64,000 nucleotides of DNA from the sequence record NC_027381.1; one strand, 5' to 3'. The position numbers and the translations under genes were made by a program. Shown in pieces: positions 25,673-40,800 of this stretch. Position 1 is the stretch's first letter, and the number at the start of each line of letters is the position of its first letter. The stretch is from Escherichia phage Pollock. The notes beneath the pieces were generated by a model. The model searched no databases, was not told the origin of the DNA, and saw only the letters and a list, made by a program, of their open reading frames with translations.

Positions 25673-26659
25673 ATGAAGTTAACCAATAACACTAACATCG
25701 CATTGTCGATGGCAGTATGGTTAGCTCAAGATGATTATGACTATATTGAAAAACCTAACTACATCTCTGCTACCAGTCTATTAAAGAGTGTTCGACAGTT
25801 AGTTCTAATGAAACGTCTTACAAGCGTTTCTAACGCATCAACTGATGTAGCTGACCGAATCTCTAATCGTATGGGTTCTGCCTTTCATGATGCGATTGAA
25901 AGAGCGTGGAAGGGTAATTATCAACAGTCTCTTAATGCTCTTGGTTATCCAAAAAGGGTTATTGAATCAATTCGTATTAACCCAACTCCTGAAGAGTTAA
26001 ATGAAGATGTAATTCCTATTTGGTTAGAACAGCGGGTTGAAAAGGAATTCAAAGGATGGATTATCGGAGGAAAGTTCGACATGGTTATGGAATATCGCTT
26101 AAGAGATGTTAAGTCTACTAGCGTATTCACATACATGAACAAATCCAATGATGAAAAATTCCGTATACAAGGAAGTATTTATCGTTGGCTCAATCCAGAA
26201 AAAATCAAACATGATTACATGTACATAGATTATCTCTTTACTGATTGGTCAGCTAATCAAGCCAAAAGTAATAAGGATTACCCACAGCAGAAGATTTTAG
26301 AATACCCCTTACAGTTGAAATCAGTACATGAAACGGAGCAGTATATTGCCTCCAAACTTGCTGCTTTGGAGAAGTATAAAGACTCTCCTGAACCAGAGTT
26401 ACCTGAATGTACAGAAGAAGAGTTATGGCGTGCTAAACCAGTTTATAAGTACTACAAAAATCCTAATTCAACGGGACGTAGTACAAAGAACTTTGACAAC
26501 CTGCACGATGCCAATTTGAGATTAGCTCAGGATGGTGGAGTAGGAATTGTTGTTACAGTTCCGGGTGAAGTTAAAGCTTGTAAACACTGTCCTGTCTATT
26601 CTCTTTGTACACAAAAAGATAGGTATCTGGCATCAGGAGAACTTGTCATTTCAGATTGA
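25673..26659 (+). CDS. Putative PD-(D/E)XK-type nuclease with C-terminal Cys cluster
   Basis: D...E-x-K-like segment GGKFDMVMEYRLRDVKS; C-terminal CKHCPVYSLC plus upstream PECTEEE Cys; placement in the replication module. Family assignment uncertain. Confidence 0.35.
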   Translation: MKLTNNTNIALSMAVWLAQDDYDYIEKPNYISATSLLKSVRQLVLMKRLTSVSNASTDVADRISNRMGSAFHDAIERAWKGNYQQSLNALGYPKRVIESIRINPTPEELNEDVIPIWLEQRVEKEFKGWIIGGKFDMVMEYRLRDVKSTSVFTYMNKSNDEKFRIQGSIYRWLNPEKIKHDYMYIDYLFTDWSANQAKSNKDYPQQKILEYPLQLKSVHETEQYIASKLAALEKYKDSPEPELPECTEEELWRAKPVYKYYKNPNSTGRSTKNFDNLHDANLRLAQDGGVGIVVTVPGEVKACKHCPVYSLCTQKDRYLASGELVISD

Positions 26660-28830
26660 GGAATCCAATGTTTGACCTATCATCAGCCACATACCATCCA
26701 ATCTCAGAAGAGATTGTAGATGTGCTATGTAAAAAAACCCTTAATAGTAATCGCTTGTTCTTTAGAGTTCAGGTTAGTTACTTTCTGGCTAAGATGGCAT
26801 CCAGTATGCGTTGTACTCTGGATACATTAGACAGAGGAAAGATTCCTGTTAATGTTTATGCCCTTAACTTAGCTCCATCAGGTTCAGGTAAAGGGCATTC
26901 CACTAATATCATTGAAGGTCAGTTCCTGAATCAATTTAAGGGTACTTTCCTTCAGGATACATTTCCATATATAGCTAAACAGAATCTTATAGATGTAGCT
27001 GCTAAAAGAGCAGGTAAAAATGGTACAGACCCAGCAGATGAACTTGTTAAGGTAGAAAAGGAATTTGCTAGTACGGGTGCTTTAGCATTTTCGTTTGATA
27101 GTGGTACTGTTCCTGCCCTTAAACAATTACGTCATAAGTTACTTTTAGCAGGAATTGGTGCTGCATCTTTTGAATGTGATGAGTTAGGTAAAAACTTAAT
27201 TGCAAACATGGATTTGTTAACAGCTTTTTTAGAGTTGTATGACCAAGGACTTATCAAACAAAAGTTAACCAAAAATACAGCAGACTCTCAACGAATGGAG
27301 GAATTAGAGGGGAAAACCCCAACTAATATGCTTCTGTTTGGTACTCCAAATAGTTTGCTGAATGGTGGTAAAGAAGAAGATGAATTCTATGCATTGTTAA
27401 TAGCAGGCTATGCAAGACGTTGTTTATTTGGATATTCTCGTAAAGAGGATTTTCAAAAAGACATGTCTCCTGAAGAAGTCTTCGATATGCTTACCGATTC
27501 TACGTCTAATGCTACTGTAGCTAGACTATCTCAGCATTTTGGTATGTTGGCTGATGTAGCCAAATATAACCAACATATAGCAGTTAACAGAGATGTAAGT
27601 ATTAAACTTATTGCTTATAAACTTCACTGCGAACAAATAGCTGATAAGCTTCCTGACCATGAAGAAATTCGTAAAGCTGAATTACGACACCGTTATTTCA
27701 AAGCATTGAAGTTAGCAGGCGTATATGCATTTGTAGATGAAACTCCAGAAGTAACTGAAACTCAATTACTATCTGCAATTAAATTAGTTGAAGAGTCTGG
27801 TGAAGCTTTTAATAAAATTCTCAGTCGTGAGAAGAATTATGTGAAGCTTGCTAATTATATTGCAGAAATAGGAAAAGAAGTTACTCATGTAGATTTGGTA
27901 GAAGACTTACCATTCTATAAAGGGAGTAATGCACAGAAGCAAGAGCTTATGAATTTGGCTATTGCTTATGGGTATAAGCATCACATTATTATTAAGAAAA
28001 CATATATTGATGGTATTGAGTTCTTTAAAGGTGAAGCTCTTAAACCAACTGACCTCAATAAACTTATTGTTTCTTATAGTAATCATATAGCCTATAACTA
28101 TCTCTCAGAGACGATATCCTTTAGTAACCTAGAATCCTTATGCAAGATGGAAGACATGCATTGGATTAATCATGCATTGGTTAAAGGTGCTAGTGGGGAT
28201 GGTCACAGAGAAGGTGGAAATATCATTCCTGGTTTTAATGTTATCGTCATTGATGTTGATGGAGGAACATCTCTGGATGAAGTTAGAGTATTGATGAAAG
28301 ACTATACGTATATCATCCATACTACTAAACGGCATCAAACAGAAGGATATGGCGATAGATTCAGATTAATTATACCTATCAACTATCATCTAAAATTAGA
28401 TGAGAATGAATTCAAAGAATTTATGTCAAATATCTTTGAATGGCTTCCATTTAAAGTAGATGAACAGACTAGTCAACGTGCTCGTAAATGGGCAACACAT
28501 CCGGGTATTTCATTTTCTAATGAAGGTGAAATCTTAGATGCTTTAGCTTTCATTCCAAAAACCAGTAAGAATGATGAGCTAAAGAAAACTATGGTTGATT
28601 TAGGTAATCTGGATAATCTTGAACGTTGGTTTGCTCAACGTATGGGCAACGGAAACCGAAACAATCAACTGCTAAAATTTGCTATGATGCTTGCAGATAC
28701 TGGTATGAATTATCAAGATATTCTGCATAAGGTAATTGATTTCAATTCTAAATTGAGTAATAGCCTTCCAGAGATTGAAATCCATAACACTATCATGCGT
28801 AGCGTCAGCAAAAAGTTATCAGAAAAATAA
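26656..28830 (+). CDS. Replication protein with primase-polymerase (AEP)-like C-terminal domain
   Basis: C-terminal NVIVIDVDGG ... YIIHTTKRH ... motifs resemble AEP primase-polymerase motifs I and II; 724 aa; in the replication module. Confidence 0.45.
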   Translation: MRNPMFDLSSATYHPISEEIVDVLCKKTLNSNRLFFRVQVSYFLAKMASSMRCTLDTLDRGKIPVNVYALNLAPSGSGKGHSTNIIEGQFLNQFKGTFLQDTFPYIAKQNLIDVAAKRAGKNGTDPADELVKVEKEFASTGALAFSFDSGTVPALKQLRHKLLLAGIGAASFECDELGKNLIANMDLLTAFLELYDQGLIKQKLTKNTADSQRMEELEGKTPTNMLLFGTPNSLLNGGKEEDEFYALLIAGYARRCLFGYSRKEDFQKDMSPEEVFDMLTDSTSNATVARLSQHFGMLADVAKYNQHIAVNRDVSIKLIAYKLHCEQIADKLPDHEEIRKAELRHRYFKALKLAGVYAFVDETPEVTETQLLSAIKLVEESGEAFNKILSREKNYVKLANYIAEIGKEVTHVDLVEDLPFYKGSNAQKQELMNLAIAYGYKHHIIIKKTYIDGIEFFKGEALKPTDLNKLIVSYSNHIAYNYLSETISFSNLESLCKMEDMHWINHALVKGASGDGHREGGNIIPGFNVIVIDVDGGTSLDEVRVLMKDYTYIIHTTKRHQTEGYGDRFRLIIPINYHLKLDENEFKEFMSNIFEWLPFKVDEQTSQRARKWATHPGISFSNEGEILDALAFIPKTSKNDELKKTMVDLGNLDNLERWFAQRMGNGNRNNQLLKFAMMLADTGMNYQDILHKVIDFNSKLSNSLPEIEIHNTIMRSVSKKLSEK

Positions 28831-28855
28831 CCCCTTAATTGGGGTTTTCTTATTT
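28829..28855 (+). terminator. Rho-independent terminator
   Basis: aacccc-ttaatt-ggggtt stem-loop followed by a T-rich run. Confidence 0.7.
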
Positions 28856-28869
28856 AAGCAGGAGATACA

Positions 28870-29598
28870 ATGTCAGAACCAATTAAAGATTTGGTATTGA
28901 TTGCAGGTGCATCCTCTTCAGGTAAATCATCTTCATTGATGAATTTGCCAGACCATCCGGGAGTGATGTATTTAAACTGTGAATCAGGTAAACGTCTGCC
29001 ATTTCCAAACAAGTTTGATAAATATGTAATCACTGACCCACTTCAAGTATACGAAGCATTTGATGCTGCTGAACAGATGCCTCATATTCATACCATTGTT
29101 GTAGATTCACTTACATTCTTGATGGATATGTTTGAATCTCTTTATGTAGTTGGTTCTACCAATACCATGAAGGGATGGGCAGATTATAACCAATATTTTA
29201 AAAACTTGATGCAGGATAAAGTAGCTAAGTCTACTAAACGTGTAATTTTCACTGCTCATACTCTATCTCAATTAAATGAGAATGAGATGATTATTGAAAC
29301 TAAAATTCCGATTAAAGGTGCTTTAAAGAACCAAGGAATTGAAGCGTATTTTACCTGCATTGTTTATGCCAAGAAGATGCAGCTTAAGCATCTGAAACCA
29401 TATGAAAATGACTTATTAGTCATTACTCCTGAAGAGGAAATTCTTGGCTATAAGCATGTATTTCAAACATGTATCACTAAAGATACTGTGCATGAACGTA
29501 TTCGTTCTCCACGCTTTATGTGGAAGATGAATGAAAGTTTCATTGATAATGATGTAACTAAAGTATTGGACCGTATTAAAGAATTCTACGAAGAGTAA
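28870..29598 (+). CDS. RecA-fold P-loop NTPase (AAA_24/Sak4-like)
   Basis: Walker A AGASSSGKSS near the N-terminus, Walker B-like IVVDSLTFLMD; about 240 aa as typical for phage Sak4-type ATPases. Confidence 0.5.
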   Translation: MSEPIKDLVLIAGASSSGKSSSLMNLPDHPGVMYLNCESGKRLPFPNKFDKYVITDPLQVYEAFDAAEQMPHIHTIVVDSLTFLMDMFESLYVVGSTNTMKGWADYNQYFKNLMQDKVAKSTKRVIFTAHTLSQLNENEMIIETKIPIKGALKNQGIEAYFTCIVYAKKMQLKHLKPYENDLLVITPEEEILGYKHVFQTCITKDTVHERIRSPRFMWKMNESFIDNDVTKVLDRIKEFYEE

Positions 29599-29607
29599 GG
29601 AATAAAT

Positions 29608-30348
29608 ATGTCTCTGTTAAAAAATCTGGAAACTAAAGCTGGTGTTGAAGGTGAAAAGGATACCCTAGGTGGAGGTGGTGTACTTGACTCTGGTCTGTAT
29701 GACCTGATTGTAAAAGTAGCTTATATCTCTGCTTCTAGTGGTGGTGCTTTAGCTCTAAATACTATCTTTGATTATGATGGTAAAGAAGTACGTCAGCAGT
29801 TCTGGATGACTTCTGGCAATGATAAAGGCAATAAGAACACCTATATCGGTAAAGATAATAAAGAACATTATCTACCGGGTTTCTTAGCTGCTAATAGTTT
29901 GGCTCTTTTGACTGTTGGTAAAGAAATTAGCCAACTGGAATTGGAAGAGAAAACTATCAAGCTGTATGACTATGAGGCTAAAGCTGAAGTACCTACTAAG
30001 GTACAGGTATTTGTTGAATTAACTGGTCAAAAAATTACTGCTGGTATTCAGAAACAGACCGTTGATAAGAACATTGATTCTGGTCAGGTTGACGGTAATG
30101 GTAGAAAAATTTATGTAGCATCTGGTGAAACTCGTGATATTAACGAAGTAGTTAAATTCTTCCGTCACGATGATGGTTTGACTGTACCTGAAATTGAAGC
30201 TGGTAAAACTGAGGCTCAATTTAAAAATGATTGGGATGCTAAATTTACTGGTAAAACCATCAATAAAGCTAAAGGCTCTAAGGATGGTGTAACAGCAGGT
30301 GCTCCATCAGCAACAGCAAAACCAACTAAATCCCTATTTGCTAAATAA
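29608..30348 (+). CDS. Putative single-stranded DNA-binding protein (by position; N4 SSB analog)
   Basis: Gly/Lys-rich 246-aa protein between replication genes and the vRNAP gene; ends in tail KPTKSLFAK shared with ORF 31002; strong terminator follows. No direct OB-fold motif recognised. Confidence 0.4.
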   Translation: MSLLKNLETKAGVEGEKDTLGGGGVLDSGLYDLIVKVAYISASSGGALALNTIFDYDGKEVRQQFWMTSGNDKGNKNTYIGKDNKEHYLPGFLAANSLALLTVGKEISQLELEEKTIKLYDYEAKAEVPTKVQVFVELTGQKITAGIQKQTVDKNIDSGQVDGNGRKIYVASGETRDINEVVKFFRHDDGLTVPEIEAGKTEAQFKNDWDAKFTGKTINKAKGSKDGVTAGAPSATAKPTKSLFAK

Positions 30349-30352
30349 AAAA

Positions 30353-30377
30353 GAAGCCCTCTACGGAGGGCTTTTTA
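30353..30377 (+). terminator. Rho-independent terminator
   Basis: aagccctc-tac-ggagggctt stem-loop followed by TTTT. Confidence 0.75.
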
Positions 30378-30389
30378 ATAGGTATTTTT

Positions 30390-30623
30390 ATGACAATCAA
30401 AGTAAGAATGTTCCAAAATGTCTCTGGTACAGCTTATCAGAAAGTGTCATATAAAATCATTCAAGGGATTATAGAAAATCCTAATGATAAAGAAATTGAT
30501 GTTCTTCTTACTGGTTGGGAACATGCTAGTTCTAAATCAGTAATGAGAACTAAAATTTTACAACAACTAGAGTGGTTTAAGTCTCAAGGGTACACTGTCA
30601 TTTTTAATAATGAGAGACTTTAA
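30390..30623 (+). CDS. Hypothetical protein, 77 aa
   Basis: ORF only. Confidence 0.4.
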   Translation: MTIKVRMFQNVSGTAYQKVSYKIIQGIIENPNDKEIDVLLTGWEHASSKSVMRTKILQQLEWFKSQGYTVIFNNERL

Positions 30624-30625
30624 TC

Positions 30626-31009
30626 ATGTATAAACTTATTGCCCCTCTTCGAGTACACAAATCTAAAAATAAGTTATTTAGTCTCAATTTGAATGCATAC
30701 AGGAATGAGAATAGATTTGCTTTGGACAATGCCAAAGTTAATTTTAAAAAGGTTATGGAAGAACAAATTAGTGAGTTACCTGAGTTCACTAAAGTTCATA
30801 TTACATATGTCTTTTATCCTGGAACCAAACATTTAAGTGATATTGGTAATGCGTGCTCGATAGTTGATAAGTTTTTTGCAGATGCTTTAGTTGAACTAGG
30901 GAAACTCCCAGATGACAATTATCTTTATATTCCTGAATTGGTTTTTCGGTTTGGGGCTGTAGACCAAAAAAATCCACGAGTAGAAATCTTTATTAAGGAA
31001 ATTGAATAA
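30626..31009 (+). CDS. RusA-like Holliday junction resolvase
   Basis: SDIGNACSIVDKFFADALVELGKLPDDNYL aligns with the RusA catalytic region [25 protein letters not shown]; about 125 aa. Confidence 0.6.
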   Translation: MYKLIAPLRVHKSKNKLFSLNLNAYRNENRFALDNAKVNFKKVMEEQISELPEFTKVHITYVFYPGTKHLSDIGNACSIVDKFFADALVELGKLPDDNYLYIPELVFRFGAVDQKNPRVEIFIKEIE

Positions 31010-31433
31010 TATGCAAATTACTCTGAACCAAGATGAAATTCTTGAAGCTCTGAAGAACTATGCTTTCTCTGTTATCAACGTAGCTCCGGGTAATGATATT
31101 ACTATCGACCTGAAAGCTGGTCGTGGTGAGAACGGATATTCTGCTACTTTAGAAATTACTCCTCAACGTAAAGAAGTAAAAACTTCCAACGTACATACAG
31201 GTTCTACTGAAAATACTGTAGGACTTCGTACAGAAGTTGTAGAACGTACTGTTGAATCTGATAAAAGAGTTATGCATGAAGTAACTCCAGAACTTCCAGT
31301 AGAAGGAGTAGACATTATAGATACTGAAGCTAAAGACCCTGCTGCAGACATGACTGAAGAAGAAGTTGATGCAGAAGTAGATGCATTTATGGCTACCCAG
31401 AATCCAACTAAATCACTCTTCGCTCGTAATTAA
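31002..31433 (+). CDS. Acidic hypothetical protein with SSB-like C-terminal tail
   Basis: Asp/Glu-rich; C-terminus NPTKSLFARN nearly identical to the C-terminus of ORF 29608. Confidence 0.45.
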   Translation: MNNMQITLNQDEILEALKNYAFSVINVAPGNDITIDLKAGRGENGYSATLEITPQRKEVKTSNVHTGSTENTVGLRTEVVERTVESDKRVMHEVTPELPVEGVDIIDTEAKDPAADMTEEEVDAEVDAFMATQNPTKSLFARN

Positions 31434-31446
31434 TTAAGGAGCTAAA

Positions 31447-31596
31447 ATGAAAGCACTTAAAGCTGCTTTCATTACTGCTCTCATAGTAGGGGTCTTTTTT
31501 ACATGGCCCCTAGTATTAACAGTAGCTGTGATAGCAGGATTATTTTGGTTTATCTATATGGCTCTGATTCAAACAGAAGAGGAAGAAGATAATTGA
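31447..31596 (+). CDS. Small membrane protein, 49 aa (hand-called)
   Basis: Hydrophobic ALIVGVFFTWPLVLTVAVIAGLFWFIYMAL followed by an acidic tail. Confidence 0.3.
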   Translation: MKALKAAFITALIVGVFFTWPLVLTVAVIAGLFWFIYMALIQTEEEEDN

Positions 31597-31823
31597 TTGT
31601 TTGGATTGTAATTGGATTAATTGTAGTCATTTGTCGTCTATCAATTTTTAGACAAAATGACCCAAAAGTAAAGAAAACTATGAGGAATGTTAAAATAGCC
31701 TTTGAAGATGAAAGACTTTATTGGGCTATCATTACTCCTTCTTTAATATTTTGGAGCATTATACTAGCTATATTTTGGCCTGTTGTAGTGTATACAAGAT
31801 TTTTCTACAAACAGAAAAAATAA
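31593..31823 (+). CDS. Small membrane protein, 76 aa
   Basis: Two hydrophobic segments (IVWIVIGLIVVI and IITPSLIFWSIILAIFWPVVV). Confidence 0.35.
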   Translation: MIVWIVIGLIVVICRLSIFRQNDPKVKKTMRNVKIAFEDERLYWAIITPSLIFWSIILAIFWPVVVYTRFFYKQKK

Positions 31824-31828
31824 ATAAT

Positions 31829-31855
31829 AAGCCTCTTCCATGAGGCTTTTTCTTT
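31829..31855. terminator. Bidirectional terminator between convergent transcription units
   Basis: aagcctc-ttccatg-aggctt stem-loop flanked by an A-run upstream and a T-run downstream; sits between the plus-strand block and the minus-strand vRNAP gene. Confidence 0.7.
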
Positions 31856-34800
31856 TAGTACAGACTTACTAAAGGATGGATAGTAAATCCATTTAGTGCT
31901 GTACCCATTCCAACGTTATAACTTAAGCTACCTGTTGCTAAGTTTGCTTCCATGATATTAGGTAATCCAGATTCAGCAGTATTACCAAACATAAGGAATA
32001 ATGCTCTTAATGGGTTTTCCCTAATCGTTCTTAAGATAATTTTCTGAATACGAATCTTATAGTTTAAGAACCATGTTAAACCAATAGCATCCAAATAGAA
32101 TCTGGTGCGACTAGGTAATATGTCATAGTTCACAAACTCATCCATTACTCTATTCAATGCACTATCTTTATCCATTGGATTACGAGAACGAGTAGTTAAA
32201 TGCTTATATAGAGAGTATTTAGCAACGAAGTCACCATACTGAATTGAACGATTCAATAAGAAGTACACATTACTATCTCTAGATAAAGTGATTTCTTTAG
32301 CAACACGTTTAACACTATCTGGAATACCAGAAGTGTACTCATCCATTTTAGTAAGTAGTTTATCCTTCAAAGAGTAATCATCCTGCTGACCTAAATCTTC
32401 TGCGATAGTTGGTAACAAACCAGCTTTAATTAAATCAGCTACTGGGTTACGAGCTTGAGAATCTTTAAGTTCAGATATTTTTCTCTGATACTCTTCAGCC
32501 ATTCTTGGATTATGGTTTACAGCCAGATAATGAGAATACTCGTTAATTAATTTCTCATTTCTTCTGTACTCCTCAGCAGCCAGTACAGCAGTAGACATAT
32601 CTTTAGCCATAGTAATTGGGCTAATACCTACCGTAGCCAAATGTACCATGTTAGATAAGATATTCCCTGCGGATACAACTACTGAACGAACTACAATCCA
32701 GTCCTTCATTTCCTTCACAAATTCCATCAAACCACGTTCACCAAGTCTTAGATAGCGTGCAGCATTCTTACCTAAGAATGTTTCTGCAATGTTTACAAAT
32801 GCTTTCTGAAACTCTTTAGAGAAATTGGTTTGACCAGTCCATAGATTCAGTACAGAAGGTTCACGATAACCAAATGCATTATTCAGTAAATCCTTACGTA
32901 CTTTAATTTTCCCATTAGGCCAAATACGTTTGGCTGCTTCTTTCATCTCAATAGGCATCAGTTCATAGATTTCTTTTAACTGATGGTCTGTAGAGTTTTC
33001 ATCTATAGTGATGTATTGATATGCTTTTCCTTCTCTAGCATCCTTCTTATAGATTTCACCAAGTCTTTCTAAAAGCATCTCATTGTATTTGGCAGCCTGA
33101 ATCTCTTCAGCAATACGACCTTCCCAAGCAGCTAATACTTTAGTGAAGTCATTATCTACATTTAATTGAGCTTCTCTATTAGCTCTTGGCATTTGGTACG
33201 AGTATCCCATTATTGAACCAGCGCGGTTTAAAACAGGCTGCATCTGTCCATCATAGTTCTGAGGCATTGGTTTAGAAGCATCAAATAAATCATTGATAGC
33301 AGCTTGTTTATTAGCTGATACCTTGTTCTTTTCTGATGTCTTCCATGCACCCGGGGTCATAGAACCATTAACACTTCTGCCTGTAATTGGGTTTACTCCA
33401 CCTACGGTGCTTTGCAGGGTACTCATTACACCAGCAATCCAACGAGGTTCACCACCATTGTTAGAATGGTAGTAGTACATTGGAGTTTTATCTGTATCTG
33501 CTGGGTCACGTTTAACTTGAGCACCTCTGGTATAGCCTCTACGAGATAAGCTTGGTTCATCCTTAATGGATGCAATAATTACTTTTTTGTTTGGGTCAGT
33601 GATAGTAGGAGTAAATCCTTTAACTGCTGCCAAAGAATAGTTATTACCAGATTTAGCTAACTCAGCGCCTTTAAGGCTTTCATAGTATTTGAGAGTAAAA
33701 GTCATACCATTATTATCTGGTTCACCTTTAGTCATCTCTCTACTGATTACATTACTTACTGTTTCTTTATCTGCTTGAGATAATTCAGTAAGAGCACTCA
33801 ATGAAGCCAAGGTATCAATTAACTGAGTAGCTATTTCAACAGCATCATTTGATGGTCTTTCTCTACCAGTACCAATCAAACGTGCAATAGCAGCAGCATT
33901 TGATAATTGGTATGCCAGTGGAGATACTCCATGCACCATCTGTTTAGCTAAACCATGAGCAGATTTAATATAGAATGCAGAGTTTTGAGCACCTGCTTTT
34001 TGTAACTGAGATTCTATTAAATCTATCTCTTTAGCTAACTCATTTGGATTAGTTAATAATTCATTTAAACGAACCAAGTCATACCCATTAGCAAACAGGT
34101 ATGCCATATCTGTATTGGCAACTACTCTCTGAATAGCCTCTTTCTCATTTTGGTTTAAAGAAACAAACGTTTTTTCAATCATACCCGGAACCATCTCACG
34201 AATAATCTGACGTGCTCTATCAGCAGCCATATTTTTCTGAGTTAATAAGGTATGAATACTACTGTTGGTTTCATTAGAACCAATAAATTCATTAATGAGT
34301 TCAGCGATAGTACCTAGTTTTCCATCCTGATGAATGGTCATATAAATGTGAGTTATAGCCTCACGTACATCATGAGCATCTTGTTCATTAAATACTGCTG
34401 CTCCAACAGTAATACCAAATGCTACAGACTTAGGTACTTTCTTCTCTACTTTGCTTAACTGCTTACGAATAGAGTTACCAAAAGCTCTCAACCTATCTTG
34501 AGTAGCTTCAGTGATTTCTTCTGTACCTCTACCAATTCTGGTAAAGAGATTATCTCTTGCCTGACTATCTACATGACTAATGTTCTTAGCCAGTTTAGAT
34601 AAACGAGAAGCAATATTTGTATCTCTTAAAGATTTAGTAGCTAAGCCAGATAACCAAGTAAGAATCATATTAGTTAAATCACCAATACGTTCTCTAAGAG
34701 ATGTAGCCTGATTCTGTCTGGTACGTTTAACACTAATTTGAGACAGCTTATTTCTTAATTGTTCATTGGTTTCAGCCAATGCAATAAAGTTAGCAAGTCT

Positions 34801-37800
34801 GTTAGTACGACCAGTAGCATCAGTAGTAATAGCTGTATTGCCAAATACTGCATCATATCTTTGTTTAGCTAATGCCATTTCATTAGCAGAACGATTGTTA
34901 GGGTCAGTTAAGAAATCTTCTACTTTTAAGTTTTCTCTGGCTTGCGAGTACAAACTACGTGCAACCAGAACACTTGGAGAAAAGTTCTCTAACCCATATT
35001 TCATAGATACTTGCAGCATCTTGAATACAAATGCTTCTTTCTCACTCATGTTAAAACCATGAGCAATTAATGCATTTGGTGAGTCATCAATTTCTGGGTC
35101 AATGCTATCTACCAAAAGTTTATCTTGGTAATGCTCTAAACCAGATATTTGCTGACCAGTATTTTTAATTACTTTAATGATATTGGATTGTAAGTAATCC
35201 AGAGTATCTGTTAGATGATTTACATGTTCCTGAGATGCTTTACCTGCATCCAATTTATTAAATAATGTTTCTGCATCTAATCTATTAATGTTGTTAGCAT
35301 TTTGCTGAGCATAGCTTGTTGTATCTCTGGATTTAACAGGATTGGTAGCATCAGCCAAAGCAACGGTATGGCCTAACAAACGAGTCCAGTAAGAAGTAAT
35401 GTCTGGATTAGAGCCAATAGCAAACAGACGTTTAATAGATTCAGCTAATTGCTTAAGTACCTTTGTTACAGTTCCTGTAATAGTTTTTTTAGTCATTGCA
35501 TCAATCATCCTTGGGTTAACAAGACCCCATGCAATGAATTCAGCAGTAGCCTGAGCCATATCACCAGAAGCAATATGATTATTAATCAAGTCTACAACAC
35601 TATCTGTTTCAGGATTCGTACTAGAATACTCATTAACAAATTTAGTCATGAGTGCTTCTATTGAAGCAATCTCTACTTTTTGAGCAGGAGTTAATGCTTC
35701 TGGATTACTGTAATAATTGTGAACAGCATTAGCAGTAGCAGCATGAATTAACTCATGCATTACAGTCTCAATAGACTGAGAACCAATATAGATATTCTGT
35801 CCCTGTGTAAGCCCTAAGAATGAGTTATTAAACTCAACCTTAGTATCAGGTGTCATTTCCTGTTGAACGGCTGAGAGAGCTTCTGGAGAGCCTACATACA
35901 CATTAATATCTTCAGGAATAGAGTTAGCAATCTTATCTAATACGAAGCTAGTAATTCTATTTTGACGAGAAGGTAAAGATTTAGCTGCTTCTTTAATAGC
36001 AGCAATCACATCACCTTTAGACAGTACTTTAATTCCATCATGTCCTGATACATTTCTTCCATTTTTAGCCAATGCTTCAATCATTTGACGAGTAGGAGGA
36101 ATAGTTACTCTACCTTTAGGGAGAGATACTGATTCCATAGTAGGAAGTTCTGTATTAGCAATTAACTGTTCTAAAGGAGTTCTGGTATCAATTGCTTCTT
36201 TATCAGTCTGCTTACCATTCTGAACATTGAATGGAATATTAGCCCCGGTCATTTGGTTAATAGAAGTAACTGCTTCTCCTCCTAATAAACCTTGTTTAAT
36301 AGCAGTTTGAGTAGCAGCTTCTTTTTTAAGAAGTGTAGTAAATGCTTCTAACACTTCTGGGCTAGTAGGTGAATTGGTTTCATCTGCTCCAATCATTTCC
36401 ATAATTCCACGGAAAGATTGTTCCAAACGTGTATCTGCATCTGGACCTAATTCTTCAGTTAGATTTACTCCTTCCATCGCTTGCTCAAAACGATTAGTAA
36501 AATCTTGAAGTAAATCAAATTCATTCCAACTTTGCAGAACACCTTGGTTAATAGCTTGAGAACCAGTATCTAAATGAGCTACAGCATTAATATAACCATC
36601 AAATACGTTAAGGGCATTGTTAGGGTTAATATCACGAGCAATAGCCTGCATAGCTGCTTCTACAGATTGAACCAATAAAGGCATTACACGAGTACCTGGT
36701 TCAGTATAAGTAGGAGTATCTACACCAAAAGTAGCACGACGCATTTTACCATCCAGATTTCTACGTCCTCTGGATTCCATACGATAAATATCAAATGTGA
36801 CTCTACCTTCTTCACTCAGAAGAATACCTTCATTTAATTTAGCTGCATCAGTATTACCAGCAGTAAACCAAGAGTTAAAGATAGGCATCTGAGTAATCAG
36901 TTCTCTCTTAATCTCGTTATATTGCTGCTGAGAAAGAGATTCATACTTAGATAATTTACCTGCTTCTCTAAGTTCTTTTTCTTTAGCTTCTACTACTTTA
37001 TTCCAACGAGACATGAATACTTCATGCATTACAGCAGCAGCATAAACCATCATCTTGCCGCGATTGATTACAGTACCAAATTCATTAGCAATTGATTCAT
37101 TTACTGCTGCACCAATACCAATTTTGATGTTTTGGGTAATTGCTTCAATCTGCTCGCTAGTAAACTCAAATTTAGTTACATCTTTTCCTAAATTGATAGG
37201 AGCACCAATTTTTACCCAAGAACCATTACGAAATACTTGAGCAGTAGTTAATTCATTAGTTGTATTGGTCAAATCATTAATATGAGCAATTGCAGCATCT
37301 CTATCTTCCTGATTAGTAGCTGAATCTACTGCTCTTAATGCTTCTGTGATTGCTTCGTAATAACCATTAGCAATACCCATAGCAATCTTTCTATTGATTG
37401 CATTAGCACCACCAGAATAAACAGTAACTGTTACTGGATTTTTAAGTAATCCTCGACCTATTTGGATTGGATGTTCTACATCCTCTCCTTCAACAATATT
37501 TACATCACCAATTAGTTTTGATGCAGCAAGAGTTACCCTTACCTGATTTTTCAAGCGTTCAATATCTCTCATCTCTTTTTGTTGGAATTGTCGAGATTTA
37601 TTTTTAAGGGCAGCTAACCTGTTAGGGATATTACTGTAAGCATCCATCATGTTGTTGATGTATTGCTGTGAGCCAGCAGCAGCAGTTTTATACAGGTCTA
37701 AGAATCCCGGTTCTTCAGCAGCATCATTGTATAGACGGTCTGATTGCCCATAGAACAAACCACCTTTCTCTAACTTATTCAGTAAATCTTGGTTCACGTC

Positions 37801-40800
37801 TTTTAAACCAAGCTGAACAATAGAGTTAAATGGTCCATTAGTTACACCATCAAGCTCCAGCATCACATGAGTCTGGAATGAGGATTTACCTTGTTCTACT
37901 GCTAATTCATATTGAGCTTGTGCATATAAAGCATGGAGTGTTTTAGTTTTCTCCTTACCTGCTTTTACAGCTTCTAAAAGAACCTCTGCATCAGCATCAC
38001 TAATTGAATCTTGGTTTTCAGCAGCTTTTAGAATATTGATAGCATCTCTAAATAAACCAGTACTGATAGCTTTATTTAGCTTATCTCTGGCAGTCTCAGA
38101 AGAGAGTTTATCAACAGCAATATCCAATCCTTGAGCAATAGCATAATCAAGAAATGCACCATGTTGAGGATTGTTGAGTTCAATAGTAGAAGGTTCAACA
38201 GTAATTAATTCACGATGTAATTTAGCTGACTGAGGGTTTAAATCCCCTGAGTTAAGCATCATACGGAAGTTACTAATTACGTTATATGCAAAATAAATAG
38301 GTGTATTAGCCAGAGGTAATCCAGCTTCTGACATACGAGTTAAACCGTTAATCAGAGTATTAATATCTCTTTCAATAGTACGGTTAGAACCTTGAATGGA
38401 TTTCAGATGAGCACCATTAGCATTCTCTTCTGATTGAATGCCTAACATTCTACCAATCCATTCTGTACCTAATTTATCCAGCATAAGGTCATGAAGACCC
38501 ATGTTGATATAATGAGGTTGTTTACTGGCTTTGTTACGTGCAGCAAGCATCTTTTCAGGAATATCCTGACCACCACCATTTTTAACTTTAGTGCTCTGAC
38601 CTTTTGGTGGAGTACCAAAGTATGCTCCTGCTTTTTCTCTCTGAGGATTAGTTAATTGACCTAAGAGGTCATTGGAATCCTTCATTAAGTCTACTAAACG
38701 TTTAGCAGCTTCAGATTCTTCATTCATACGAATGAATATACGAGAGTTTTTAATGTTGGATTCATTTACTTTAGTAGAACCAACAGCAGCTAATTCACTG
38801 TTTTTAACAACAGATTCTTGAACCAGATTAGCATTAATCATTACGTTCAATACTTCAGTTGCTAGTGCTTTAGATACAGCATCACGAACAGAGATAGGAG
38901 TATTAGGGTCAGCATTAATACCTAAGATTCCAAAAATCTCTCTGCTTAAATAATCAATAACATTTTGCCGGTCTGTACCTACATTACGTAATAAATCTGT
39001 TTGCTCTACAGTAGGTTTAGTTTTGTTATCTAAACCAAGAATATCCATTACTGTACGGTCATCATTGAATGTAGTTTCAACTGCATTACGTACAAACCAC
39101 TGCATCATACCAGCAGTCATTGCTTCAATTACTGGCTGAGGTAAGAAGTAAACATTTTCACCATTGATATTTCTTACTTCACTAAAATATTCGACAGGGT
39201 ATGTTTCCCAGAAGATACGTTGACCTTCAGGAGTTAATTTACCCCAAGATTGAATTAACGATTGTTCAATAGCAGGGACTAAACCAGCAAATTGACGTAG
39301 TACTTTTACTTCTTTCTCTGTTACTTGTTCTGGTTTAATAAATCCTTTAAACAGATTTTGAATCTGAGTAATAGGATTAGAACCATTGGTAAAAATGTTA
39401 TTAAGTCTTCCAGAGAAATTAGAAGTTCTCAGGAATGCAGAACGTTTACCTGTAGGTTTAAACCATTTTTTAACTTGGTTAGTAGCCTGATAGTTCTTAT
39501 CTGCTTCTGAAGTAGATTTAGCATCAGAACGTACAGTTTCTGATTGCAGACTACTCAGAATATCGAAATTAACACCTTTATCTAAACCAAGTTCTAATTG
39601 AGACTCATCCATTAAATCAGTCTCAACTTCAGTTGGTTTTTCCTGAATCTGAATTTCAGATTCAACTACATCTGGTTTCTCAAATAGTTCTCCTTGAACT
39701 GGAGTACTAGTAGGAGCTTCTGTAACAGCTTCTGGCTGTGTTTCTACAGTCTCAGAAGGTGTTTGTACCTGTTCTTCAGAAACCTGTGCAGAAGCCTCTA
39801 TAGGAGCTTCTGATTCTTGAGTTGAGACTAATTCCTCTGTAGCAACTGGAGCAGATTGTGCTGGCACAGATACAGGTTTACCATCTACTAATTGACTAGT
39901 AATGGTATGTGCTTGACGAACAGCATTAGCATCATTACGAATTTCTTTGATTAATCCTTTAGAACGTACCGGATGATACGTCATAGGATTTCCATCTAAA
40001 GATAAATATGGTTGTCCTGTAGTTGGATTAATTACTTCTACAGGTTGATTACCAGTAAAGTTTTGAGCAGCCTGTTCAAATGCATTAGCTTTAGTTTCCA
40101 TGTGCTCTGCAAAACGGTTTAAATGGTCTAATAAACCTTGAGCACGAGCAGTATCCCCTAAAGATAATGCACGGAAGATACCTTGCTGATACTGTTGAAT
40201 ACCAATAAATCCATCAGAACCTTTACGTACATCTTCTCCTACTTGGCTCATTGCTTTACCAGTAGCAGAGATAATTTTTAATTTATCTACATCCTGCTGG
40301 TTCAAACCAATGGTTTCTGCTGAATTAACTAAACGGTCAGCAACTTCTGGAGTAATAGAAGATGCATCTAAATTCATTTGAGCCAGAACAGATTTAATGT
40401 TCTTTTGTACTTCAGGAGATTTATAAGTTTCTGGAGTAATTTCAGAAGGTAAAGACTCCATAATCTTATTCATTTCTTCTGGAGTCAGTCTGAAGCTTTC
40501 AGCAGTAGTTTTAACTGCTTGTACATCAGGATGGTTCAGCACAGCATTGATATTATCAATAGCTGTTTGATACTGAGCTTTCTCTTCTTCTGGTGCAACT
40601 TCCATCTGTGCTTGAATTTGAGGTAAAGCTTCCTCATAAGCAGAGATAACATTATTACCTACAACAGCTAAATCTCTACGAGAAGCTTCATCCAAATTAC
40701 GTTCTTTAATTGCACGGGAAATTCTCAAAATAGAATCTGGAGAACTAATTTCCTCTTCAGGAATAGCTTTAAATACTTCTTTAGCAGCAGGTTCAGTAAC

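Follow-up and report, generated by a model that had tools for sequence, protein, structure and literature searches.

A shared C-terminal tail on the SSB and an unrelated acidic protein of Escherichia phage Pollock, a putative docking motif of N4-like phages

Two tail-bearing genes in the Pollock locus

The stretch of DNA analysed here (the window) comprises 64,000 nucleotides from Escherichia phage Pollock (NC_027381.1). Genes for a primase (26656-28830), a Sak4-like ATPase (28870-29598) and a single-stranded DNA-binding protein (SSB; 29608-30348) follow one another in it, and the virion RNA polymerase (vRNAP) gene lies beyond them on the minus strand (31855-42468). The same order of primase, Sak4-like ATPase and SSB, upstream of an opposed vRNAP gene, was found in N4 and in 24 other loci. 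The features that matter for our argument are the following.

28870-29598, plus strand: Sak4-like ATPase (RecA core, AAA_24; PF13479, E=2e-13; phrog_124, E=5e-47), directly 5' of the SSB gene; candidate receptor of the tail
29608-30348, plus strand: N4 gp45-type SSB, 246 aa (phrog_743, E=4e-75, residues 1-246)
30274-30321, plus strand: flexible Gly/Ala/Pro/Ser linker of the SSB (aa 223-238), varying in length and sequence across the family alignment
30322-30345, plus strand: C-terminal tail of the SSB, PTKSLFAK, with the core S-L-F (S242, L243 and F244 near-invariant or invariant in 54 diverse SSBs)
30354-30373, no strand assigned: G+C-rich hairpin AAGCCCTC-TACG-GAGGGCTT, just 3' of the SSB stop codon, from a scan for terminator-like elements
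30626-31009, plus strand: RusA-like Holliday-junction resolvase (phrog_1682, E=2e-39), immediately 5' of the second tail-bearing gene
31011-31433, plus strand: second tail-bearing protein, CPT_Pollock56, of the N4 gp47 / Ab09 gp61 ('Bes2') family, 140 aa (phrog_27655, E=6e-82)
31011-31175, plus strand: its N-terminal domain (aa 1-55, MQITLNQDEI…KAGRGENG…), with near-invariant I3, A13, A36, R38, G39, G42 and A45
31176-31391, plus strand: its acidic linker (aa 56-127, net charge -13), poorly conserved, unalignable and variable in length within the family
31404-31430, plus strand: its C-terminal tail, PTKSLFARN (F137 invariant and S135 near-invariant in 59 diverse homologues)

The Pollock SSB matched 463 phage records by tblastn, almost all of them N4-like, and is 37-42% identical to the Escherichia N4-type SSBs; it is an orthologue of N4 gp45. 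Its AF2 model has a confident β-rich core (mean pLDDT 87.5), and a Foldseek search of the PDB gave only a weak match, the best being to the OB-fold protein PrgE; as modelled, the fold would be only remotely OB-like. Residues 226-241 fall below a pLDDT of 50 in the full-length model, as do the equivalent residues in a model truncated at the N terminus. The hairpin behind the SSB gene was scored on the minus strand, and on the plus strand just a short T run follows it. The open reading frame of the second gene spans 31002-31433, with translation more likely to begin at the ATG at 31011, since orthologues begin MQITL, the RusA stop codon occupies 31007-31009 and the resulting product is 100% identical to CPT_Pollock56. 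The N-terminal domain of this protein had no Pfam match in our scan and no match among PDB sequences in a profile search (best E 0.2).

The SSB reading frame ends ...SATAKPTKSLFAK (…AKPTKSLFAK) and the second frame ends ...MATQNPTKSLFARN (…QNPTKSLFARN), so that the heptapeptide PTKSLFA is encoded twice, at 30322-30342 and 31404-31424, with three of its seven codons differing synonymously (tcc/tca, cta/ctc, ttt/ttc). The original prediction, that the SSB shares this peptide with an otherwise unrelated acidic protein, was borne out: any two of the 102 open reading frames of at least 60 aa shared a 7-mer within their last 13 residues in only 1 of 2000 shuffles. BLASTP aligned the last 12 residues of the two proteins and no others (9/12 identical), and a profile-profile comparison of the two families aligned seven columns, which are the tail and nothing more; since both alignments are limited to the tail, the rest of the two proteins is unrelated, as had been claimed. 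An SLF tail is absent from all other open reading frames of at least 100 aa in the window. The Pollock SSB tail, PTKSLFAK, carries a net charge of +2.

Conservation and co-variation of the tail

The original prediction hung on the tail being kept in orthologues, and throughout Schitoviridae both families have indeed kept it. Among database homologues of the SSB, 119/120 (~99%) end in S[LM]F followed by 0-3 residues, the N4 SSB itself ending AKSLFGKK, and a ΦF tail was present on the SSB at each of 26 loci drawn from many genera. Single-protein scans yielded 14 additional loci. The second family is large (2878 cluster representatives match its N-terminal domain at E<=1e-3) and carries S-[LI]-F near the C terminus in 118/120 homologues and in 112/116 further cluster representatives (~98% of 236), with at least two copies in 31 of the 116 and a maximum of four to five. 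In the 70 unique SSB tails that were profiled, F has one to three residues after it, and among the SSBs it is terminal only in BUCT194; in the second protein 1-14 residues follow, and internal copies occur. Tails of the Pollock group conform to K-P-T-x-S-L-F and those of the family as a whole to S-Φ-F, a core that is invariant among phages of α-, β- and γ-proteobacteria. Most schitovirus tails have a net charge of +1 to +4, with an acidic run only in some lineages (GDDPFTM, QSDLFL, SLFED); the non-schitovirus relative SBP2phi2, which keeps the Sak4-SSB pair, has the acidic SSB tail DDDLNF*.

The residues that flank the core vary in step between the two proteins of one phage. Flank similarity between SSB and second protein was 9.75 within the same genome and -0.38±1.45 in shuffled pairings (p<5e-5), and the residues downstream of F gave this co-variation on their own (p<5e-5). 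In Nepra, for example, the SSB ends QSDLFL* and the second protein VLDLFS*, with three internal DLF motifs, while Nepra-like contigs pair QDNLFM* with AINLFA*. Klebsiella phage HS106 pairs GDDPFTM* with EDDPFANFD* (with internal D[LP]F), an Alcaligenes phage GMSLFD with KMSLFGD and a Ruegeria phage KKSSLFDD with KKSSIFDAE; Litunavirus has SLFS* on both proteins alike. Where tail residues are identical between SSB and second protein, 43/92 are encoded by different codons, including switches between TCN and AGY serine codons, so selection acts at the level of the peptide. These synonymous differences rule out recent gene conversion or duplication of the tails; ancient gene conversion followed by synonymous drift could in principle be a source of the co-variation.

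They also bear on the idea that there is no common partner at all, the tails reflecting either occasional gene conversion between 3' ends of low complexity or some general signal at the C terminus, such as a degron or a membrane-targeting tip. It is true that 3' ends can recombine, and a deletion in phage Ab09 used a 7-bp microhomology exactly there. Basic-hydrophobic ends such as SLFGKK and SLFAGLKK also loosely resemble membrane-targeting tips, of which the amphipathic tip of MinD (…KRLFGG) is an example. However, S and F have been kept invariant over thousands of clusters while their codons diverged synonymously; the motif is shorter than a membrane helix requires; the acidic variants (DDPF, DLF, SLFDD, SLFED) cannot bind membranes; and the internal repeats, together with the 0-14 residues past F, count against a degron. 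Degron and membrane tip were both rejected on the internal repeats, the variable distance to the C terminus and the acidic variants, and we regard the absence of a common partner as extremely improbable.

The original proposal of one partner on which the SSB and the second protein both dock by their tails is well supported, because each family preserves the motif and its flanks co-vary within genomes in the face of differing codons and without DNA identity. Judged by these sequence patterns, a single receptor for the SSB tail and the second-protein tail is very probable.

Candidate receptors

The genomic setting of the two genes points to recombination and replication. The order Sak4-like ATPase, SSB, resolvase (RusA or RuvC-like) and second protein is kept across the sampled loci, with Sak4-SSB adjacency in 26/26 of them and in the non-schitovirus SBP2phi2. 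The second protein lies directly after the Holliday-junction resolvase, between SSB and vRNAP, in the sampled loci, with an intervening HNH gene in JWAlpha. In RHEph22, Ruegeria V13, Vibrio JA-1, P0242, P0276, P0351 and P0352 it is fused to RusA, and at least three phage lineages have acquired such fusions; the profile of the fused family (phrog_33948) matches the Pollock RusA reading frame over positions 3-128 and the next frame over positions 135-255. For phage HK620, the last six residues of the SSB are needed for loading of Sak4 (PMC5928155).

The pattern of variation also says something about where the receptor is encoded. Enterobacterales phages carry tails as unlike one another as KSLFGKK, TKSLFAK, QSDLFL and GDDPFTM, each matching the second protein of its own phage, and the charge of the tail flips from +4 to -2 among phages that share one host order. 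Tails track phage lineage rather than host, with several types found among the phages of each of Vibrio, Pseudomonas and Klebsiella. Because tails that vary within one host order are nonetheless matched phage by phage, a phage-encoded receptor explains them more easily than an invariant surface on the host RNA polymerase subunit β′. We suggest that the co-evolving receptor belongs to the phage recombination/replication module and is most likely the adjacent Sak4-like ATPase, a proposal that we would rate at somewhat under an even chance. Uncorrected for phylogeny, tail charge anticorrelates with net charge both for the Sak4-like protein (rho -0.52) and for the SSB core (rho -0.53, p=0.005); the correlation for the primase is weaker. 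The first two of these phylogeny-uncorrected correlations are equally strong and do not tell the two proteins apart.

The other leading candidate is the host RNA polymerase β′, in which case the gp47/Bes2 protein would be a competitor that delays or limits late transcription, or a DNA-independent co-activator. The original prediction was correct in stating that the C-terminus of the N4 SSB activates host RNA polymerase for late transcription (reviewed in PMC4496689); this is the sole experimentally documented role of that C-terminus, activation needs the C-terminal residues and not ssDNA binding, and N4SSB binds the highly conserved C-terminal region of β′ (PMC4496689). The end of the N4 SSB, AKSLFGKK, is the motif, and an invariant S-Φ-F core would fit a surface that is strongly conserved in the host. 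[quoted passage not shown] Moreover, since the trigger of Thoeris II is a late protein, a modulator of late transcription could plausibly alter immune activation. However, the flanks are drastically unlike among phages of Enterobacterales, hosts with near-identical β′, and yet are pair-matched in each phage; the tails follow phage lineage rather than host; and the second protein is tied to a resolvase, not to transcription genes. As the shared receptor, RNA polymerase seems to us rather unlikely. The two candidates may nevertheless both be touched by the tail: in N4-type phages it may contact β′ in addition to a phage-encoded receptor, which would make SSB tails multi-partner hubs.

A phage-encoded receptor could also be the SSB core itself, which would explain the co-variation. 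The tail would then dock on a neighbouring SSB, giving cooperativity or auto-inhibition, possibly alongside an N-terminal SLFGNL/SLLKNL helix, and the second protein, with its tail copies and an acidic linker that mimics ssDNA, would serve as chaperone or unloader of the SSB. The anticorrelation of tail charge with core charge fits this, although the correlation with the Sak4-like protein is just as strong. PrgE, the OB-fold and SSB-like protein that is the best PDB match to the fold, oligomerises through an N-terminal tail, and the N termini of the SSBs (MSNLFGNL in N4, MSLFGNL in Zuri) look like second-protein tails such as SLFGNL, SLFANL and SLFAGL. Against it, AF2 docked the C-terminal tail nowhere, either in the full-length SSB or in the SSB without residues 1-22 (tail pLDDT 46 and 49), a result that lends the idea no support but says little as a negative, and neither tail co-varies with the N-terminal motif (p=0.66 and 0.18). 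For this lack of co-variation we rejected the view that the N-terminal SLFGNL/SLLKNL, similar in sequence as it is, represents a third copy, and we consider the SSB core an improbable receptor.

A further host candidate is the β-sliding clamp, to which both proteins would be tethered if the tail were a variant of the clamp-binding motif QL[SD]LF that recognises DnaN. S-L-F makes up the last three residues of that consensus, and the clamp motif of E. coli δ is QAMSLF. A position at the end of a disordered C terminus is typical of such motifs, and the linker that bears S-L-F has a pLDDT below 50; the SSB tails of the Cbunavirus type (QSDLF, QDNLF) and those of their partners (LDLF, INLF) come near to QLDLF and QLNLF. 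The phage T4 proteins gp43, gp33 and gp55 likewise share a clamp-binding tail, which links late transcription with replication in the way that has also been proposed for N4SSB, and the resemblance extends to unrelated proteins that share a short hydrophobic C-terminal peptide and so compete for one hub. Unlike the clamp clients of T4 and bacteria, however, the tails described here lack the defining Gln, and a phage clamp is not encoded. Gln stands at position 1 in 0/70 unique SSB tails of the Pollock-related set (position -4 holding T in 52, A in 9 and other residues in the rest) and is rare in the second protein, falling outside the seven commonest residues at -4 of 187 unique tails; the Cbunavirus-type SSBs (QSDLF, QDNLF) are exceptions. 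Position 2 is mostly K, T, S or R. Variants of the DDPF type do not fit, co-varying flanks speak against an invariant host pocket, and N4 replication is said to have been reconstituted without the host clamp. A canonical clamp-binding motif was rejected for want of the defining Gln, and a variant one appears very improbable.

A proposed docking motif and the gp47/Bes2 family

The explanation that we favour, and about which our confidence is evenly balanced, is that the two tails are instances of the same short linear docking motif (basic-S-[L/I]-F, then small or basic residues) carried at the tips of flexible linkers. N4 gp45-type SSBs would use it throughout the family as their tip for protein interactions, and it would correspond in function to the acidic …DDDIPF tip in bacterial SSB and to the tails at the C termini of T7 gp2.5 and T4 gp32. 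Its partner in the genome, the second protein, would be a mimic of the SSB tail at the receptor site of that tail: either an adaptor that brings its N-terminal domain, and the RusA resolvase where fused, to the receptor, or a multivalent competitor that tunes the exposure of the receptor to the SSB tail.

Work from the Richardson laboratory offers a close precedent. The C-terminal tails of the T7 SSB, gp2.5, and of the helicase-primase, gp4, reportedly both dock on T7 DNA polymerase and are said to be interchangeable at this one receptor, with a critical Phe. In T7 as here, a phage SSB shares its type of short terminal tail with a phage protein to which it is unrelated. The T7 tails, however, are acidic and have Phe as the last residue, whereas those described here are mostly basic or neutral, with a Ser-Φ-Phe core, 0-14 residues after it and internal repeats; and gp4 is a replisome enzyme, whereas the second protein is mostly disordered, acidic and adjoins, or is fused to, a resolvase. 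N4SSB and the Pollock SSB are orthologues with the same terminal motif, and the published N4 work covers the SSB only. As in bacterial SSB and the HK620 SSB (NDYPPF; PMC5928155), a flexible linker leads to a short Phe tip and a Sak4-like gene adjoins ssb. Schitovirus lineages with GDDPFTM, and SBP2phi2 with DDDLNF*, resemble the canonical acidic SSB tip, whereas the tips of Pollock and most schitoviruses are basic and, in contrast to bacterial …DDDIPF-COOH, do not end in Phe. To our knowledge, a multivalent mimic of the tail on a protein of its own occurs neither in the bacterial systems nor in HK620.

The second protein is a member of the N4 gp47 / Ab09 gp61 family, with Pollock and Ab09 only distantly related in sequence: the N-terminal domain HMM matches the Pollock protein at 4e-34, N4 gp47 at 5e-24 and Ab09 gp61 at 1e-4, and synteny is alike. 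A 1-nt difference in the N4 reference genome, either a sequencing error or a real frameshift, explains why gp47 is annotated there without the tail. Ab09 gp61, like the Pollock protein, follows a resolvase and has the same N-terminal domain, an acidic linker and a tail (…GGSLFS*); its partner resolvase is RuvC-like, that of Pollock RusA-type. In this Pseudomonas phage, gp61 has been described as Bes2 ('broad evasion of signaling 2'), an anti-Thoeris/CBASS protein that does not bind the signals, has low AlphaFold confidence over most of its length and no fold similarity, and is dispensable for growth, as Ab09 grows without Bes1 and Bes2 (bioRxiv 10.64898/2026.06.04.730250); the trigger of Thoeris II in that study is a late protein, the side tail fibre. 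Since the double mutant grows, any adaptor role would be inessential in the laboratory. The counter-defence phenotype is reported for Ab09 gp61 only, and the host of Pollock is a different one. Neither the Bes2 preprint nor the N4SSB review (PMC4496689) mentions a second tail-bearing protein, a family-wide motif or co-variation, and the text of the preprint mentions neither the motif nor disorder nor similarity to the SSB tail.

The published end-points of the Ab09Δ57-61 deletion, 41,096 and 42,899, coincide with two CCGGCAG repeats 1803 bp apart, from which the mutant is predicted to encode SSB residues 1-246 in frame with the last 17 residues of Bes2 (…STGGSLFS*). The viable mutant is thus probably, as read from its sequence, a natural tail swap in effect, and the predicted fusion suggests that the tails are interchangeable, as in T7.

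In the favoured explanation, the anti-signalling effect of Bes2 would follow indirectly from DNA maturation or late development that runs faster or is better timed, and not from signal sequestration. We further propose, tentatively and with more doubt than confidence, that gp47/Bes2 proteins are multivalent SSB-tail mimics (1-5 copies) that act on β′ and/or the Sak4-like ATPase to govern when and how strongly late transcription and DNA maturation proceed, and thereby defeat Thoeris and CBASS without sequestering their signals.

In summary, the interaction tip of a large and structurally divergent SSB family is now a precise, testable peptide, and N4 genetics had implicated this very segment in the switch to late genes by the host RNA polymerase. 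The N4 gp47 annotation is corrected, Ab09Δ57-61 is re-read as a probable in-frame tail swap, and natural pairs of matched and mismatched tails (SLF, DLF, NLF, DDPF) can be used for specificity experiments. For Bes2/gp47, carrying the docking peptide of the SSB, often in several copies and coupled to a resolvase, is a first mechanistic clue; if our proposal is true, these proteins would represent a class of phage regulators and counter-defence factors not recognised before, which act by mimicking a motif of the SSB that the phage itself encodes.

A common tail on two otherwise unrelated proteins

Phage Pollock's single-stranded-DNA-binding protein (SSB), an N4 gp45-type protein of 246 aa, ends in …ATAKPTKSLFAK, and the 140-aa product of a nearby gene (here the second protein) ends in …ATQNPTKSLFARN. 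Reading both ORF ends directly confirmed the original prediction that the two have a common C-terminal tail, and its claim that they are otherwise unrelated also held: BLASTP aligned only the last 12 residues (9 identical), and a profile-profile comparison of the two families gave seven aligned columns, the tail and nothing else. The seven common tail codons differ synonymously at three sites. Of 2000 shuffles, 1 gave two window ORFs with a common 7-mer among their last 13 residues, and no further window ORF of at least 100 aa carries an SLF-type tail. The ATG at 31011, rather than the TTG at 31002, is most likely the start of the second gene, whose product matches CPT_Pollock56 of Escherichia phage Pollock with 100% identity.

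Pollock is an N4-like podovirus, with a virion RNA polymerase (vRNAP) of 3537 aa on the minus strand and its replication block on the plus strand. The closest genomes in the phage collection are those of Salmonella phage FSL SP-058 and relatives (Schitoviridae, Humphriesvirinae; ~85% nucleotide identity).

Local gene order in the window
26656-28830, plus strand: primase, first in the order
28870-29598, plus strand: Sak4-like AAA_24 ATPase, between primase and SSB
29608-30348, plus strand: SSB, directly 3' of the Sak4-like ATPase gene
30390-30623, plus strand: 77-aa ORF (phrog_20544, E=1e-47), between SSB and RusA
30626-31009, plus strand: RusA-like resolvase, directly 5' of the second protein
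31011-31433, plus strand: second protein, between RusA and two small membrane proteins
31447-31596 (49 aa) and 31593-31823 (76 aa): two small predicted membrane proteins, 3' of the second-protein gene
Beyond these, opposite strand: vRNAP, end of the order

The 77-aa ORF is kept in Humphriesvirinae and TR2 and is missing here in most other genera; its region has been described as a hotspot of anti-defence genes (Acb4, Sequestin, Tad2/3, RyR-Tad; bioRxiv 10.64898/2026.06.04.730250). A small hydrophobic ORF also lies 3' of the orthologous second gene in most other sampled genera (for example Zuri gp70, Ea9-2 64A, OLIVR1 gp26 and Pylas gp62/63). Directly 3' of the SSB stop codon is a perfect 8-bp G+C-rich hairpin (30354-30373; AAGCCCTC tacg GAGGGCTT), which scores as terminator-like on the minus strand and is followed by just TTT on the plus strand; similar, bidirectional hairpins mark gene-block boundaries at 28829-28846 and 31829-31848.

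Conservation and co-variation of the tails

The tail is conserved in orthologues of both proteins. S-[L/M]-F, with 0-3 residues after it, ends 119 of the best 120 database homologues of the SSB, the exception being a truncated entry, and across 54 aligned, diverse SSBs F244 never varies and S242 and L243 hardly do; N4 SSB ends in …AAKSLFGKK. For the second protein, [S/G]-[L/I/V]-F lies within the last ~16 residues of 118/120 homologues, and the same motif is found in 112/116 further representatives drawn from a family that forms 2878 clusters at 50% identity. The profile of Pollock-related SSB tails reads K-K-P-T-[KTS]-S-L-F-[AKGS]-[K/R/end], and that of the second-protein tails [K/P]-[P/R/T/K]-[K/R/G]-S-[L/I]-F-[A/S/G/N]-[K/F/G/R]-[L/A]-x-K. 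About one quarter of the second-protein homologues have at least two motif copies, with four or five in, for example, Pectobacterium phage Nepra, Klebsiella phage HS106 and Vibrio phage BUCT194.

Tail pairs from 24 phages of different genera were scored for similarity of the flanking residues, leaving out the Φ-F core. Mean flank similarity within a genome was 9.75, whereas shuffled pairings gave -0.38±1.45 (p<5e-5), and the residues that follow Phe, taken alone, gave the same outcome. The two tails, as judged from these pairs, appear to co-evolve. Different codons are used at 43 of the 92 identical residues, TCN/AGY serine switches among them, which rules out recent DNA exchange between the two tails. 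The simplest reading of the co-variation would be a common structural constraint, that is, one receptor site.

Examples of SSB and second-protein tails
Nepra: SSB QSDLFL*; second protein VLDLFS* and three internal DLF
Nepra-like contigs: SSB QDNLFM*; second protein AINLFA*
HS106: SSB GDDPFTM*; second protein EDDPFANFD* and internal DLF/DPF/APF/ELF
Alcaligenes phage: SSB GMSLFD*; second protein KMSLFGD…
Ruegeria V13: SSB KKSSLFDD*; second protein KKSSIFDAE*
Litunavirus (YH6, Ab09): SSB SLFS*; second protein SLFS*
Vibrio 1.026.O: SSB SLFG*; second protein SLFG*
BUCT194: SSB PSLF*; second protein PPLF*
Burkholderia HN05: SSB RPSLF; second protein RPSLF
JWAlpha: SSB RPSLF; second protein KPSLF

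The SSB also has a conserved short N-terminal helix (residues 1-22, 29608-29673; pLDDT ~74, AF2), which reads MSLLKNL in Pollock. Elsewhere in the alignment it reads MSNLFGNL, MSLFGNL or MFGNL, resembling the second-protein tails SLFGNL, SLFANL and SLFAGL; this N-terminal motif co-varied with neither tail (p=0.66 and 0.18).

The second protein and its resolvase partner

The second protein combines a conserved N-terminal domain (~55 aa), a linker that is acidic (net -13 in Pollock), varies in length and cannot be aligned across the family, and the tail. No sequence relatives were found in Pfam or the PDB. The top match of an N-domain profile search, the giant, repetitive P0241 (4728 aa), matches profile positions 28-45 only (a KAGRGENG-like segment), 42 times, and is almost certainly a low-complexity artefact rather than a relative.

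The protein belongs to the N4 gp47 family, an assignment that the depositors of JWAlpha likewise gave its homologue, and to that of Pseudomonas phage Ab09 gp61. A June 2026 preprint names the latter Bes2 and gives the name Bes1 to the RuvC-like gene before it; either one singly restores to a deletion phage resistance to Thoeris of types I and II and to CBASS of type II-A, neither of the two proteins binds or cleaves the tested signals, and Bes2 has no recognisable fold (bioRxiv 10.64898/2026.06.04.730250). Its authors suggest that Bes1 and Bes2 may help phage development rather than directly inhibit immunity; the text does not mention a motif, disorder or SSB similarity of Bes2.

In every locus examined the second gene lies 3' of a Holliday-junction resolvase, with an HNH gene between them in JWAlpha. 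The resolvase is of the RusA type in Pollock and in Vibrio, Rhizobium and Ruegeria phages, and RuvC-like (N4 gp46/Bes1) in N4 and in Pseudomonas, Erwinia, Achromobacter, Burkholderia and Klebsiella phages. Comparison of window 30626-31009 with its equivalents in loci L005-L010, L013, L016-L020, L024 and L025 indicates non-orthologous displacement of the resolvase at a fixed position, the downstream tail-bearing protein remaining unchanged. In Rhizobium RHEph22, Ruegeria V13, Vibrio JA-1 and several metagenomic proteins the second protein is fused to the RusA C-terminus, and a PHROG family of such fused proteins is matched end to end by the two Pollock ORFs.

Annotated N4 gp47 ends in …KNQYKPNLLCLQV, seemingly without the tail, and another frame reads …EAKEPVQAKPSLFAGLKR*. 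We compared this site (L008:7979-8125; NC_008720, 31,978-32,124) with that of PMBT57 (L026:601-750), a phage of N4's species. The run GAAGAAG(A)AAAAG has one A more in PMBT57, whose orthologue ends in …QAKPSLFAGLKR*, as does N4 when given the extra base. Because PMBT57 has both the additional A and the tail, the N4 reference carries a 1-nt frameshift in gp47, either a sequencing error or a laboratory-strain change.

The published end-points of Ab09Δ57-61 (41,096 and 42,899; HG962375) are exactly two CCGGCAG repeats 1803 bp apart, one within the SSB linker and the other within the Bes2 linker, and a deletion between them is in frame. This predicts SSB(1-246) followed by the last 17 Bes2 residues, ending …PAPAAKQAAPASTGGSLFS*. 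The Cas3-generated Ab09Δgp57-61, described only as missing 51 bp of gp57 and the greater part of gp61 (bioRxiv 10.64898/2026.06.04.730250), should then encode an in-frame SSB::Bes2-tail fusion, …GRPAPAAKQAAPASTGGSLFS*, not a tail-less SSB, and in the viable mutant the SSB would retain an S-L-F tail. That outcome, a single event with a prior of 1 in 3 for being in frame, is consistent with interchangeable tails and perhaps with a need for the SSB tail.

Candidate receptors and a proposed tail-mimic model

A common receptor for both tails probably exists. The original prediction looked to host RNA polymerase, pointing out that the C-terminus of N4 SSB activates it for late transcription. This idea has real experimental backing for N4, since late-promoter activation there dispenses with DNA binding but not with the C-terminal residues, and N4SSB binds a conserved C-terminal region of β′ (review PMC4496689). 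However, β′ as the only receptor fits poorly with tails that track phage lineage rather than host: in Enterobacterales phages they run from KKSLFGKK (+4) to GDDPFTM (-2), always matching the phage's own second protein. We consider it less likely than not that the receptor is β′; a co-evolving phage-encoded one explains these patterns better than an invariant host surface would. That it is a recombination or replication protein is a tentative proposal, somewhat short of probable, with the Sak4-like ATPase as best candidate. Its gene adjoins ssb in every locus examined and in the non-schitovirus SBP2phi2, and in HK620 the last six SSB residues are needed for Sak4 loading on SSB-coated DNA (PMC5928155). 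Tail charge anticorrelates with the net charge of the Sak4-like protein (rho -0.52) and equally with SSB-core charge (rho -0.53), both correlations ignoring phylogeny. The SSB core is itself a candidate, but AF2 left the tail undocked from it, with or without the N-terminal 22 residues. Another is the host β clamp. The clamp-binding consensus ends much like the S-L-F core, but its defining Gln is missing from the tails. SSB tails are typically hubs with several partners, so binding to RNA polymerase would not preclude a phage partner as well.

Stenotrophomonas phage SBP2phi2 (49.8 kb, not N4-like; L027:5252-6597) encodes, beside its Sak4-like ATPase, a distant N4-type SSB homologue (25% identity) with a canonical acidic tip, …QFQDDDLNF*, and no gp47-like gene was seen near it. 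On this evidence the basic schitovirus S-L-F tip may have been derived from, or have replaced, an acidic SSB tip.

Unrelated proteins are known to use a common short terminal peptide to reach one hub: T7 gp2.5 and gp4 place their tails onto T7 DNA polymerase, and T4 gp43, gp33 and gp55 theirs onto the clamp; bacterial clamp clients and the bacterial SSB tip are further cases. No prior description of the tail motif on an SSB and a mimic protein was found in the accessible literature. Apparently new are the motif (Ser-Φ-Phe, mostly in a basic context, terminal position not required), its occurrence on a resolvase-coupled acidic mimic protein that is dedicated to it and often multivalent, the co-variation of both tails lineage by lineage, and the link of the N4SSB activation tail with Bes2. 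We propose that the second protein is an SSB-tail mimic, which would reach the SSB-tail receptor through one or several copies of the docking peptide and there either deliver its N-domain, with the fused or neighbouring resolvase, or titrate the receptor. Such a model would fit a protein that is acidic, disordered and often multivalent, that is coupled to a resolvase and dispensable in the laboratory, and whose Ab09 counterpart, Bes2, resembles Bes1 in phenotype.
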